This document shows positions 21,108 to 30,100 of a stretch of DNA of 64,000 nt, piece by piece. This stretch comes from a plasmid, in sequence record NZ_CP029448.1; one strand, written 5' to 3'. Each line of letters opens with the position of its first letter. The stretch's first letter is position 1. Position numbers: made by a program.

Positions 21108-24100
21108 TAAAAACCGGAAATAACGCCAGAAATGGTGGAAAAAATAGCCTAAATAGGCTGATTCGATGTGTTTGCGGGAAAAAAATCGGCCCAGATCCGC
21201 GAAATTTTAATCAGCGAGTCAGCTTGGGAAGAAATGACCTGCTTATTCGCACCTTCCCTAGCGCTCTGAGCGAACTGGCAAAACAGTTTTGGGAAAAACG
21301 AGGATAACGCTTTTCAGTATCTCGACAGGGATAACTTACTTTACCATCGGTATCCCTTTTAGCCGCACAAATTTTAGCCATGGCTTTTCAGGAAGTCAGG
21401 GCTATCAGAATGGCCTTAGAAAGCCTAGTCAAAGAGCTGTCACGAGAACACCGTTAGCTTAGCGTACGATTTTTTCCGAATTCTGCGGTTCCCCCTACTG
21501 GGTCAATGGCCCTCGCGCGGTCGATCAGGCTGGCTGGAAGAAAATTATCGGGGACAAACCGACCCTGATCATGCTCGATGAGTTGCCGCCCTACCTTGAA
21601 AACGCGAGCACTACTGTCATCGGCGGCGGTACGCTGGCTACCGTGAGCACCTACACACTCAGCTGCCTGATGAGCGCCGCTCTGGAGTTACCGCGTTGCT
21701 GCATTGTGATTGCCAACCTATCCGGCAGCTATGTGGCTCAGACCAAGGCAATTGCCGAAGCAATCTCTAACCTCCAGCAAGAAGCCAGTCGCCAAGCGAG
21801 CACCATCACCCCCGTGCAGTTGGCGGGTACCTGTTCATCCCTAGCGCCTCTCCGCCTTGATGCTGGCAGATTCAGTCTGGCCTCGCGGTTCGACCTACCG
21901 AAATATCGGCGGTTACATTGTCCCCAGAGCTTCAGACCCGGCTGTTACCGGCCACGCCTGTCTGGGTAGGGAACGAGTGGTGGAACAGTCGGTTCCGTCG
22001 GGCGTTAACCTGCGGAACAGAAACCCATGCGACTTTCAGGTCGCACTGCCGAAATAATACTGGTTTCCCTTCTTGGTCTGGTGCATTTCCGGGTCGCGCT
22101 TGCCGTCCTTGTTCTTGGTCGAACTGGGCGCATTGATCAGCGTTGCATCGACGATGGTGCCCTGGCGCAGCGACAGGCCGCGGTCGCCCAGAGCCATTGA
22201 TGACAGCGAGGATGCCGGCCGCCAGCTCGTGTTTCTCCAGCAAGCGGCGGAAGTTGAGAATGGTGGTTTCGTCGGGGATGCGCTCCAGGTTCAGCCCGGC
22301 AAACTGGCGCAGGATCGTGGTTTCGTACAGCGCTTCCTCCATCGCTGGATCGCTGTAGCCGAACCAGTTCTGCAGCAGATGCACACGCAGCATCGCCATC
22401 AACGGGTAGGCCGGACGGCCACCTTCACCCTTCGGATAATGTGGCTCGATCAAAGCAATCAAGCCCTTCCACGGCACCACCCGATCCATCTCGATCAGGA
22501 ACAACTCCTTGCGGGTTTGCTTGCGCTTGCCAGCGTACTCGGCGTCGGCGAAGGTCATCTGCTTCATCGGGAAACTCGGTGGGTGGAATCCGGGTATTTT
22601 GCCAAAATCTGGAAGTCTTCTTCAGAGTTTCCCTAGTGTGGGGTTTGAGGGCCAACGATGTAAAAAACCACGTTAATAGGTTAACCTATTGTTTTATTTT
22701 AATTATTAGGTGCTGCATTTACAGCTACTCCAATGATCATGGGGCTGATGGTCGATGGAACGCAATACCAAGTAGATTGATTGCATAAAGTTCCTTCAAT
22801 TCCGATCTGCCCTCCCGTTTTCACATCCTACTTCAGTTCAATTTTGTTGCCATTCCTTTACAACAGCTTCCCAATTGGCCGTTCTCTCGACCAATTTCCC
22901 ATCAGCATCCTTTCTTGTCCAAACATCCCAGAAATCAGGGTCATCAGAATGGGGTTGCTGCTCTTTCGTCAAATTTTTCATTTTAACTAAGACAGGAAGT
23001 TCAGATGCCCAGCCCATCAGTATTGCATGTTGAGATGGCAATGAAGGCAATTCACGGAGTAATCCTCGCAAATTGTCGGGTACCATTTTATGAACTTGCT
23101 CCTGATCTTTGTCATTGCTAATTCGATGCAGAAGAAAAGTATTACATTGAGATAAAACTGTAGGTGATAATTCTGATGGTCGTTGCGAAGAAATAACCAT
23201 ACCGAGACCAAATTTCCTGCCTTCTCGTGCAATTTTCTCAAATACTTGACAGCAAACAGCTGCGACATCCTGATTTTCACTGTCCTCACGATACCGTTTA
23301 ATAAATGTATGTGCTTCTTCAGCAACAAGTACCGTAGGTAAAGATTTGTTATATAGTCGTCTATAACGTTGCAATGATTCAAAAATAATTCTTGAAATGA
23401 CAGCTGTCACAAGATGAGTAATTTCAGTTGGTACTAAAGAAAGATCAATAATTGAAACGCAGCTATCACCATCACCATCTTTCCCAATATATGTTTCTAA
23501 CCAATTAGCCAAGTCAACTCTATGCTCTGAGTCATTGGTTATGGGTTTCATTCTTGTATCCGCAAGCATTGTGCGTATTCTAGCTACTAGATATTCAACA
23601 TATTGCTCGCTACCATTTTCTTGTGCTAACGCCTCTAAATAGGAGACTAAATTATTTCCGTCAAAAGGGACGGGGATATCCTCGTTTTTAGGAAGGAGTT
23701 CACACTCATCGCCTCCAAGGCTCTGAAATGAAGATAACACTCCATTTATGATGTTATCAACTGCGCTAACTTTAGCATTGTAATCTGGATATCTGCCTTC
23801 TCTTTGCCCACAAAAATCTTGAATAGAGATGATTAATTTATCTAGCTCAGGGCATGGTGTAGTTAATCTCGCTTTGTATTCTTCCAGACTCTGACGCCAA
23901 ATATTAATTTTAGCCAAAAGATTTTTGGCTCCAGGGAAATCATTAAGTGCCGCTGCTCCTTTAGATTTATCCGCTTTTAAAGAAACCAAAATTGTACCTA
24001 GGTATTTTTTAACTTCTATATCTATATTCTTTTGTAAATCAAATTCTTCATTTCTCATTGCTCTCAAGGAGCGTTTTAGTAATGGAAGTTGTGCTTTAGG

Positions 24101-27100: not shown

Positions 27101-30100
27101 CAGCTGGCTCGGTATTTTCATCTGGATGAGCGTGACCTTGCTTTTATTAATCAGCGACGGGGAAAACATAACCGGCTGGGGATTGCACTTCAGCTGACTA
27201 CGGCGCGCTTTCTGGGAACGTTTCTTCCTGATCCCCTTCAAATTCCCTCATTCATCCGTTTTTACATTGCGGCACAGTTGAACATCAGCCGACCAGAGAT
27301 CCTTTCCCGGTATGCTGAAAGAGAAAATACCCGCTGGGAGCATCAGGGGCTTATCAAGCTCTATTATGATTATCATGATTTTGGTGATTTCCCCTGGACA
27401 TTCAGACTGAAGCGTTTGCTCTATACTCGCGCCTGGCTCAGCAATGAGCGTCCAGGTCTGCTGTTTGATTTTGCTACCGCATGGTTGCTGCAAAATAAGA
27501 TCCTGCTACCCGCAGCCTCGACTCTGACAAGGCTGATTGGCGAAGTACGCGAACGGGCAAGTCGACGATTATGGCGAAGGCTGGCTTTGTTGCCTGACAG
27601 CTGGCAGAAAACACAACTGGACGGTTTACTTGAAATACCTGAAGGGCAGCGTATATCGGTGCTGGAGGAGATGCGAAAAGGTCCTGTCACTATCAGTGGG
27701 CCGTCATTTACAGACGCCCTGGAGCGATATACCCGACTGCGTAGCATGGAGTTTTCCCGGTTGAATTTCTCCGGTCTGCCTGCCATCCAGCTGCGGAATT
27801 TGGCCCGTTATGCCGGAATGGCTTCGGTGAAATACATTTCAAGAATGCCTGACGAACGGCGACTGGCCGTGCTTACTGCGTTTGTGAAAGCACAGGAAAT
27901 TTCGGCGCTTGACGAGGCCGTGGATGTGCTGGATATGCTTATTCTGGATATCACGCGTTCTGCAAAAAATATCGGGCAGAAAAAGCGGCTCAGGACCCTG
28001 AAAGATCTTGATCGTGCCGCGCTATTACTGGCACGGGCATGCACGTTATTACTTGATGAGAACACCGATGAAGCAGCTCTGCGGCAGGCTATTTTTCGCC
28101 GCATACCAAAGGACAAACTGGCTGAATCCGTCGGCAAGGTAAATGAGCTGGCGCGCCCGCAAGATACTCAGTTTCAGGATGAAATGGTGGAACAATATGG
28201 ACGGGTGAAGCGTTTCCTGTCCGCGATGTTGCGTGACTTACACTTTCAGGCCGCCCCGGCCGGGGAGCTCACGTTGTCAGCAATCCATTATCTGGCCGAA
28301 CTGAGTGGCTCAAAAAAGCGAATTCTCGACGATGCACCAGAGCAAATCATTTCCGGCCCATGGAAACGTCTGGTCTACGACAGAGATGGTAGGATTCTAC
28401 GAGCGGGTTACTCGCTGTGTCTTCTCGAGCGCCTTCAAGATTCTTTGCGCCGTCGTGATCTCTGGCTGGAGAACAGTGATCGGTGGGGGGACCCGCGTCA
28501 AAAATTGCTTCAGGGAGCTGAATGGCAGGCACAACGCATCCCGGTATGTCGGGCGCTGGGTCATCCATCAGACGGAACTAAAGCAGCAGAACAACTGGCT
28601 ACGCGGCTTGATGACACATGGAAATCAGTGGCTTCACGTTTTGCCTGCAACGCAGCGGTCAGCATAAGCAATGAAGGTAAGCATCCCTCACTGACGATTA
28701 GCAGTCTGGATAAACTGGATGAGCCACCGGCACTGATACAATTGAATCGTCGGGTAAGAGAATTGATCCCTCCGGTTGATCTGACGGAGCTGTTGCTTGA
28801 AATAGATGCCCGAACCGGTTTTACCCGCGAATTCAGCCACGTCAGTGAATCAGGTGCTCGGGCGCAGGATCTCCAGGTCAGTCTGTGCGCAACACTGCTG
28901 GCAGAAGCCTGCAATATAGGGCATGAACCCCTGATAAAGCATAATATTCCCGCGCTTACTCGCCATCGTCTGAGCTGGGTTAAACAAAATTATCTCAGGG
29001 CAGAAACGCTGGTCACCGCTAATGCACGGCTGGTTGATTTTCAGTCCACGCTGCCGCTCGCGGGGTACTGGGGAGGTGGTGAGGTTGCCTCCGCAGATGG
29101 TATGCGTTTTGTCACACCGGTTAAAACGGTTAATTCCGGACCAAATCGTAAATACTTTGGTTCAGGACGCGGTATCACCTGGTACAACTTCGTCTCCGAT
29201 CAATACTCCGGTTTCCATGGCATTGTAGTTCCCGGGACGCTTCGTGATTCCATCTTTGTACTGGAAGGGCTTCTGGAGCAGCAGACCGGGCTGAATCCGG
29301 TAGAAATTATGACGGACACGGCAGGATCCAGCGATATCATTTTTGGCCTGTTCTGGTTACTGGGCTACCAGTTTTCCCCTCGTCTGGCCGATGCAGGCGG
29401 GGCGATATTCTGGCGGGCAGATAAAACGGCACATTATGGTGCCCTGAATGAGCTGGCCCGGGGATGTGTTGAACTGTCAAAAATAGAATCCCAATGGGAT
29501 GAAATGATGCGAATGGCGGGCTCACTGAAGCTTGGGACCATCCATGCATCAGAGCTTATTCGTTCACTGTTGAGAAGTAGCCGACCATCTGGTCTGGCTC
29601 AGGCGATTATGGAAGTGGGCCGGGTCAACAAGACGTTGTATCTTCTCAACTATATCGATGATGAGGATTACCGGCGTCGGATCCTCACTCAGCTCAACCG
29701 GGGAGAAGGACGCCATGCAGTGGCTCGAGCCATTTGCTACGGACAACGTGGTGAGATTAGAAAACGCTACCGTGAAGGGCAGGAAGATCAACTCGGTGCT
29801 CTGGGTCTGGTGACCAATGCGGTTGTGCTGTGGAATACACTTTACATGCAGGAGGCGTTGTCACATCTTCGCAAATCGGGGGAAACACCTGAAGAGGAGC
29901 ATCTGGCAAGATTATCGCCGCTGATACATGGCCATATAAATATGCTGGGACATTATACGTTTTCGTTACCGGAAGATATTCTGAAGGGCGAGTTAAGACC
30001 ATTAAATTTGAATACAAACAATGAATTAACCTCTTAGCGTGGTTTTTTACATCATTGGACCTCGAACCCCAGTGTGCGCTCTCTTGCTTGGATGGCATTA

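Follow-up and report, generated by a model that had tools for sequence, protein, structure and literature searches.

An intact Tn3-family transposon with a SIR2-HerA passenger behind its resolvase gene

A stretch of 64,000 nucleotides from the plasmid record NZ_CP029448.1 was analysed, and this whole stretch is referred to below as the window; positions are those of the window unless another locus is named. We found that window 22640-30070 is an intact, recently active Tn3-family unit transposon of the Tn3/Tn1000 subgroup. The element is 7,431 bp long and has the gene order herA<-sir2<-tnpR-res-tnpA. As a whole, we explain it as a Tn3-family transposon with a SIR2-HerA passenger behind tnpR, in which the two arms of the element are exchanged as modules at res, and we place the probability of this explanation at roughly 0.85. 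A first-pass annotation of the same sequence had already read the SIR2-HerA pair as the passenger cargo of a mobile Tn3-family unit, and this core reading was upheld on every test.

The transposon and its SIR2-HerA cargo

A list of the open reading frames (ORFs) of window 21-32 kb gave four long genes, namely herA, sir2, tnpR and tnpA. The best inverted repeat of the region pairs 22639-22694 with 30016-30071 at 86% similarity over 56 nt; when the terminal 38 bases are counted from the ends, which begin with GGGG, 33 of the 38 are identical. The left junction reads ...CCCTAGTGT/GGGGTTTGAG... and the right junction ...CTCGAACCCC/AGTGT/GCGCTC... (slashes mark boundaries), giving an outer flank pattern of AGTGT/GGGG...CCCC/AGTGT. 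The predicted transposase matched the Pfam profiles DDE_Tnp_Tn3 (E value 9.7e-153, profile positions 1-389 of 389) and DUF4158 (7.9e-54), as well as the TnpA of Tn4430 (2e-132). The resolvase aligned over the full length with those of Tn3 (2e-49) and gamma-delta (3.5e-49). In the 159-bp spacer between tnpR and tnpA, a motif search revealed three inverted half-site pairs, which is the three-subsite res layout of Tn3 and gamma-delta; subsite I resembles site I of gamma-delta. The features of the element, with protein lengths in amino acids (aa), are as follows.

22635..22639, unstranded: left copy of the target-site duplication, AGTGT (5 bp), from flank reading and the single-copy AGTGT at the empty site
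22640..22677, plus strand: left inverted repeat (IRL), 38 bp, GGGGTTTGAGGGCCAACGATGTAAAAAACCACGTTAAT, 33/38 against the reverse complement of the right end
22838..24904, minus strand: herA, HerA/FtsK-type ATPase, 688 aa (PADLOC, Pfam, motifs)
24901..26292, minus strand: sir2, SIR2-like putative NADase, 463 aa, GTG start (PADLOC, Pfam SIR2_2, motifs)
26300..26869, minus strand: tnpR, serine resolvase, 189 aa (Pfam Resolvase, 2.9e-39)
26874..26896, unstranded: res subsite III, GTATCA-11 bp-TGAGAC on the minus strand (motif search)
26903..26935, unstranded: res subsite II, GTATCA-21 bp-TGATAC on the minus strand (motif search)
26960..26985, unstranded: res subsite I, the crossover site, GTCTCA...TTATAA...TGAGAC, centre 26970-26975 (motif search and arm switch)
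27029..30037, plus strand: tnpA, Tn3-family DDE transposase, 1002 aa, with its stop inside the right inverted repeat (Pfam, Tn4430 TnpA)
30033..30070, minus strand: right inverted repeat (IRR), 38 bp, paired with IRL
30071..30075, unstranded: right copy of the target-site duplication, AGTGT (5 bp), from flank reading and the empty site

The element thus has the attributes of the Tn3 family: a DDE transposase of about 1000 aa, 38-bp ends beginning with GGGG, a 5-bp target duplication, and a resolvase with its res site. The first-pass annotation had described an intact Tn3-family transposon with 38-bp terminal inverted repeats identical at 33 of 38 positions, a perfect AGTGT duplication and a divergent tnpR-res-tnpA core. 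On re-inspection the repeats were recovered as described, the duplication was present at both flanks, and the core was evident from the ORFs and the three res subsites; the Pfam matches and the empty site described below, together with the repeats and the duplication, bear out the intact transposon.

Both cargo ORFs are intact and retain all catalytic motifs, and the sir2 stop overlaps the herA start by 4 bp (ATGA). SIR2 matched the PADLOC profile PDLC04079 over nearly its full length (7e-156) and Pfam SIR2_2, and it carries GAGLS at residue 67, TTNYD at 219 (N221) and HGS at 282 (H282). HerA matched PDLC04098 over residues 5-687 of 688 (3.6e-247) and the HerA central profile DUF87 of Pfam (3.5e-22), and it carries Walker A GNTGSGKS at 182-189, Walker B VLVAEEAH at 525-532 and SSQRP at 572. 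The motifs of both proteins and the overlap had been noted in the first-pass annotation, which had also proposed profile searches; the PADLOC SIR2 and HerA profiles both match, and all three features were confirmed. Among solved structures, SIR2 is distantly related to PDB 8j4u/8su9 (1e-21), with the IFTTNYD and KLHGS of 8j4u kept in the alignment, and the best match of HerA is the HerA of PDB 8wiv (7e-49). Identical cargo proteins are annotated in many species.

On these matches, membership of the SIR2-HerA family (Nezha, or Gao_Her_SIR) is well supported, and homology points to an anti-phage function of the cargo. Phage protection and depletion of NAD+ have been shown for other SIR2-HerA subtypes (PMC11212891), and immunity conferred by the native SIR2-HerA of Vibrio cholerae requires herA and the equivalent Asn and His residues (PMC11212891). 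By homology, HerA and SIR2 would form a complex, expected for the family to be a HerA hexamer with a SIR2 dodecamer, in which phage infection would switch on the SIR2 NADase (N221, H282), with a need for the HerA ATPase (K188, E529/E530); the NAD+ depletion would then abort phage replication.

We also observed a variable segment of about 115 aa in HerA, between Walker A and Walker B (residues ~280-395, window 23720-24065). The segment is about 25% identical between HerA proteins that are otherwise 85-97% identical, and it occurs in two types, one in the window and in the related loci L011 and L015, the other in L013, L030, L017 and L019. It looks like a swapped or hypervariable module, and it is possibly a specificity determinant.

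Transposition of the unit and exchange of its arms

In order to search for the empty target site, both flanks were joined through one copy of AGTGT into a 1,000-bp query. Ten plasmids, from Raoultella, Klebsiella quasipneumoniae, Citrobacter and Enterobacter, matched this query at 1000/1000 positions. Matches of this quality are far beyond chance and prove a precise insertion with a 5-bp duplication. The empty-site search had been proposed in the first-pass annotation, and the ten plasmids with a single AGTGT are its outcome. The same insertion was found in no other plasmid of the collection. The sole record that covers an 18-kb junction query (H153) has the empty site and, elsewhere, a diverged copy of the transposon.

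Plasmids of Enterobacter, Klebsiella and Citrobacter, at least 26 of them (H1-H26), contain full-length copies of about 100% identity, and 79 plasmids had at least 80% of the element covered at one place. The eight copies of about 100% identity that were examined sit at different sites, and three of them have duplications of their own (TTTAT, TATTA and GTATA). A sister element of 7,517 bp is flanked by the duplication TACAC in the chromosomal ddp gene of Escherichia coli, and on a plasmid the sister element has the duplication TTTCT and adjoins finO. The presence of copies at various sites, some with their own duplications, indicates that the unit moves as a whole, and the earlier proposal that the 7.4-kb unit had moved by transposition is borne out by these copies together with the empty site. 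TnpA and the 38-bp ends put the whole 7,431-bp unit into the F-like plasmid upstream of ptx/phn, duplicating AGTGT. From what is established for the family, this movement would be replicative, with formation of a cointegrate followed by TnpR resolution at the three-subsite res.

At a coverage of at least 80%, the cargo was found in 172 of 72,556 plasmids and the transposon in 32 of 5,426 complete E. coli genomes. No match to the element was found in the phage collection (phage genomes and phage-plasmids). About 1,000 plasmids, mostly of E. coli and Salmonella, have just a remnant of about 300 bp, which is about 92% identical and is unannotated there. It consists of the tnpA 3' end and IRR of a related element and is equivalent to window 29766-30070 (element 7127-7431). 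Two plasmids of K. michiganensis RHBSTW-00409, plasmids 2 and 4 (L002 and L003), hold identical copies with a common right flank and different left flanks; plasmid 2 is typed IncA+IncFII. The common right flank suggests recombination between the copies. A simple cointegrate should also have left the reciprocal junction; this was searched for and was absent, and we do not claim a cointegrate.

Sliding identity profiles were calculated between the window element and five related elements (L009-L013), and identity was seen to change sharply at res. L010 matches the window element at 100% from IRL through tnpR, herA and sir2 included, but its tnpA is about 73% identical; in L009 the cargo side reaches about 89-93% identity and tnpA 99-100%. 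The cargo arm of the L009 type recurs in L011, L012 and L013, joined to three further tnpA arms. In L009, L011, L012 and L013 the switch point lies between 26966/26969 and 26976/26979, bracketing the centre of res site I. L011 and L012 have a common left flank, and their tnpA arms and right flanks differ. A similar picture emerged from plasmid F, with whose gamma-delta the window element has 82% amino acid identity in TnpA but merely 46% in TnpR. High TnpA and low TnpR identity is the same mosaic pattern as that produced by arm exchange. The comparison shows that the IRL-herA-sir2-tnpR arm behaves as a module: it is found combined with five or more tnpA arms, and most of the joins fall at the crossover site of the resolvase.

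One locus, H106/L014, was considered as a cargo-less parent of the Tn5403 type. It has no left inverted repeat beside tnpR, and its homology begins inside tnpR. It was therefore not used as an ancestral form, and the backbone is not called Tn5403.

Age, expression and role of the passenger

The first-pass annotation had pointed to a cargo GC content far below that of the transposition genes and had taken this to suggest a recently captured passenger. The first part stands, since herA (38.8%) and sir2 (38.7%) are far below tnpA (51.4%) and the whole window (51.5%), with tnpR at 43.2%. The second part is not supported. Between the two cargo alleles, the synonymous divergence (dS) is 0.49 for herA and 0.53 for sir2, with a ratio of nonsynonymous to synonymous divergence (dN/dS) of 0.06 for both genes; for the linked tnpR, dS is 0.32 and dN/dS 0.09. 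Cargo alleles separated by a dS of about 0.5 on a common tnpR lineage indicate that the association is old and that capture preceded the split, and the low dN/dS indicates strong purifying selection on the cargo. Both alleles, joined to one tnpR lineage, keep a GC content of 39%. Homologous cassettes of the same subtype lie in an integrase island of Rheinheimera, a defence island of Pantoea, a conjugative element of V. parahaemolyticus and, between traN and ssb, an SXT-like element of V. cholerae; those of the Rheinheimera, Pantoea and Vibrio elements have 39-41% GC regardless of their surroundings. Low GC is thus intrinsic to the cassette family and is no sign of recency, and the large GC step in the transposon falls at res, where the arms are exchanged. 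The recent event is the insertion into the present plasmid site, not the capture of the cargo.

A recent capture from a low-GC donor, whose GC had yet to equilibrate with that of the transposition genes, would explain the difference between 38.8% in the cargo and 51.4% in tnpA. Such a capture is hard to reconcile with the synonymous divergence of cargo (0.49-0.53) and tnpR (0.32) at a dN/dS of 0.06-0.09, or with the GC of about 39-41% in alleles and outside homologues alike and of 43% in tnpR itself, and we consider it very improbable. That the two alleles share a leader sequence at the junction speaks against two independent captures at one position. It could also be supposed that the cargo genes no longer have a function and are carried along while they decay, as fragments are found in many plasmids (the cargo at 80% or more in 172, the transposon in 79, end remnants in about 1000). 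However, the ORFs and catalytic motifs are intact, dN/dS is 0.06 over a dS of about 0.5, and identical proteins are annotated across many species, which leaves decay with almost no probability.

Nucleotide homology with the outside cassettes begins 15-18 bp before the sir2 start and stops at the herA stop. What travels is the pair of ORFs preceded by a ribosome-binding leader, and a promoter is not part of it. In the window, 7 bp separate the tnpR stop from the sir2 start, and both genes of the cassette read in the direction of tnpR. The sister allele has a tnpR-sir2 spacer of 76 bp (L011 3960-4035), of which just the last ~18 bp are cassette-derived. Relative to the sister, the window allele has an 81-bp deletion (26293-26316) that reduces the gap from 76 to 7 bp and gives the window TnpR new last residues and a stop taken from the cassette leader. 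No terminator-like site was found between tnpR and sir2 on the coding strand, either in the window allele or in the sister spacer. A native promoter in the 76-bp sister spacer was also considered and was rejected, as a scan of the spacer found no promoter-like site on the sense strand. In Tn3 and gamma-delta, the res promoter is repressed by resolvase. Given the co-orientation, the 7-bp gap and the lack of a terminator, co-transcription of the cassette with tnpR, starting at the res promoter, is the most likely arrangement, and it would place the cassette under resolvase autoregulation.

Alternatively, a promoter of its own in the 3' half of tnpR could drive the cassette, which would then depend neither on the res promoter nor on autoregulation by the resolvase. 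A candidate (TTGCCA-16 nt-CATCAT, with an upstream TG) is present at 26715-26688 on the coding strand and is conserved in the sister allele as TTGCCA-16-CATTAT. Conservation would be expected anyway of a site within coding sequence, and promoter-like sites in the region are at chance level (14 observed against 11.9 expected). We therefore hold an internal promoter to be a rather unlikely, though serious, alternative to co-transcription from res.

A further alternative concerns the role of the passenger. SIR2-HerA might serve mainly in conflict between mobile elements or in maintenance of the plasmid or transposon, for example by killing cells that lose the element or receive competitors. The cassette is almost confined to mobile elements (Tn3-family transposons, an integrase island, conjugative elements and a hotspot of an SXT-like integrative and conjugative element), and NAD+ depletion is intrinsically toxic, as is generally known of the family. 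Tn3-family transposons are also known to carry toxin-antitoxin pairs beside res (PMC7157771). Nevertheless, all SIR2-HerA systems tested so far act on phages, SIR2 active-site and herA mutants of V. cholerae lose immunity (PMC11212891), and the cassette has no antitoxin-like partner gene. A main role in maintenance is therefore improbable in our judgement, and a passenger acting against phages is the reading that we prefer.

Several observations weigh against the explanation of the element as a SIR2-HerA-bearing transposon with arm exchange at res. The closest solved SIR2-HerA systems are remote from the proteins of the window (E values of 1e-21 and 7e-49 for SIR2 and HerA, respectively), and we found no literature report on testing of this SIR2-HerA subtype. 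When res was scanned on the strand of tnpR, no site resembling the promoter consensus was found. In L010 the switch point is at 26945/6, about 25 bp off the site I centre, so that not every exchange was cleanly site-specific. Finally, five of nine identical copies have no matching duplications at their flanks. Mismatched flanks fit recombination between copies or intramolecular transposition, and together with the many identical copies they may be read as indirect signs of replicative transposition via a cointegrate.

The passenger slot in related elements and the host plasmid

In order to place the cargo among related elements, we took a census of TnpA relatives in one genome per species. The census comprised 79 loci, of which 40 were delimited by a pair of inverted repeats, often with a 5-bp duplication. 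In all but L051 and L061 a resolvase was recognised, and the cargo then lies on the side of tnpR that faces away from tnpA. L030 carries the same SIR2-HerA. An element of Yersinia alsatica (L098 4802-13048; 8,247 bp, inverted repeats identical at 38/38 positions, duplication TAACG) has a TnpR 84% identical to that of the window and carries a different SIR2-HerA subtype (PADLOC PDLC04093, 4e-129, and PDLC04105, 1e-150); this element acquired a system of the same kind independently. Other elements carry IetA-IetS (L058 2649-9940; PADLOC E = 0 and 2.5e-105), a type III restriction-modification pair in which the methyltransferase is accompanied by a weak match to a type III restriction enzyme (L078 4691-13039), and the PADLOC candidate PDC-M20B (404 aa) with VgrG and a 429-aa VRR-NUC-domain protein (L083). 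Non-defence cargo comprises an autotransporter, a pentapeptide-repeat protein, a PAAR-Tle1 effector, NhaA and EptA-like sulfatases, the last represented by two EptA-like phosphoethanolamine-transferase/sulfatase genes of the MCR-like family in L051 (78-8372). Tn3-type elements of 4,950 bp have a 286-aa cargo protein, taken as TEM from its size and position. This non-defence cargo rules out a dedicated defence slot. The position behind tnpR serves the subgroup as a slot for passengers in general; defence systems turn up in it repeatedly, but it is not reserved for them.

The gamma-delta element of plasmid F (L021, NC_002483.1) carries in this position, 15 bp after tnpR, the gene for TnpX (4303-6399), a 698-aa protein annotated as 'hypothetical'. 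TnpX is a P-loop protein encoded at 34% GC, with weak ORC/CDC6-like and AAA_16 matches in Pfam and matches to the PADLOC defence candidates PDC-M36A (2.4e-11) and PDC-M28C (1.5e-7). TnpX might be a defence gene. As a HerA relative it was rejected (BLASTP E = 0.066).

A more far-reaching proposal is that the slot behind tnpR is a resolvase-wired expression site for promoterless cassettes, that SIR2-HerA, otherwise repressed by TnpR at res, is produced in a burst on entering a resolvase-free cell, that the defence arm is shared via res, and that anti-phage cargo is a recurrent class. We regard this proposal as speculative and unlikely in its entirety. If it were true, the burst on entry of the transposon or plasmid would give immediate protection, an arm of 'tnpR plus defence' would pass between diverged transposase lineages by res recombination, and anti-phage cargo (two SIR2-HerA subtypes, IetAS, type III restriction-modification and perhaps TnpX) would be recurrent and so far unremarked.

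In its architecture the element resembles Tn3, Tn1 and Tn2, which share the order inverted repeat, passenger, tnpR, res, divergent tnpA and inverted repeat, the 38-bp GGGG ends and the 5-bp duplication, and in which the passenger (blaTEM in Tn3) is likewise downstream of and co-oriented with tnpR. It differs from them in TnpA, which is about 64% identical, and in its passenger, a two-gene SIR2-HerA in place of a beta-lactamase. Tn1000 (gamma-delta) is closer in TnpA (82%), has a single passenger ORF (TnpX) in the same slot and also has a three-subsite res, but its TnpR is 46% identical and the cargo described here is unrelated to TnpX; on these two grounds the element is not Tn1000 itself. The cargo shares with SIR2-HerA/Nezha of E. 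coli (PDB 8j4u/8su9) and of the V. cholerae classical biotype the overlapping sir2-herA genes and the N/H and Walker motifs, whereas its subtype is distinct and its HerA, at 688 aa, is the longer protein and has a middle part that does not align. Anti-phage passengers are known from Tn7-like transposons (Benler et al. 2021, PMC8649781), which belong to another family with another mechanism and carry large variable cargo, in contrast to the single two-gene cassette abutting the resolvase gene here. Toxin-antitoxin passengers of the Tn3 family are likewise small modules near the resolution module, for which an expression link has been proposed (Lima-Mendez et al. 2020, PMC7157771), but these are type II toxin-antitoxin pairs beside res, whereas the passenger here is an NADase-ATPase pair downstream of tnpR.

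No description of SIR2-HerA as Tn3-family cargo was found in the searchable literature, although TnCentral was outside the search and the element may already have a Tn number. The genes themselves are labelled in public annotation. The pairing is real but fairly ordinary, joining two well-known things; both components, and the riding of defence systems on mobile elements, are established, and current understanding is not overturned. The added points, namely exchange of the defence arm through res, a cassette that lacks a promoter and directly adjoins tnpR, the occurrence of several defence systems in one slot and an apparently swapped segment of HerA, merit brief further study but would hardly surprise a specialist. 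What this small, highly promiscuous Tn3-type transposon spreads, between plasmids and chromosomes in Enterobacter, Klebsiella, Citrobacter, E. coli and Salmonella, is a complete putative abortive-infection system; the TEM beta-lactamase was spread by an element of the same kind. The finding is relevant to phage therapy of clinical Enterobacterales rich in plasmids and to the question of why near-identical strains differ in their defence repertoires, and it raises testable questions on how passenger genes of the Tn3 family are expressed and reshuffled.

The large ORFs of the window include SopA/SopB, UmuC, PsiA, a ParB-like protein, TerC, a CDF transporter, ptx/phn genes, insertion sequence (IS) elements and a group II intron, and the host replicon is an F-like plasmid. 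The first-pass annotation had spoken of a conjugative resistance plasmid. The window itself does not show this, and the large ORFs tested included no transfer or antibiotic-resistance gene; the description is plausible, since a conjugative type is assigned to most of the relatives that have the empty site.

The transposon is flanked on one side by the phosphite/phosphonate operon (ptx/phn, ptxD), whose phnC/ptxA start lies 271 bp downstream of the element (window 30076-30345), and on the other side by an IS5-like remnant. The insertion may alter expression of the ptx/phn operon. Inside the IS5-like transposase remnant to the left of the transposon is a group II intron fragment (21844-21992, minus strand). 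It is the second such sequence in the window, the other being a group II intron at 52506-54323 in which a match to Rfam D1-D4 (180.6 bits) is followed by a reverse transcriptase/maturase ORF (8e-112). The window also encodes a P-loop ATPase of the Sll1717 family (41254-42240; 1.9e-45) and a 432-aa protein (37059-38357) whose N-terminus matches RelB/DinJ antitoxins, and these two are possible further defence or addiction genes of the plasmid.

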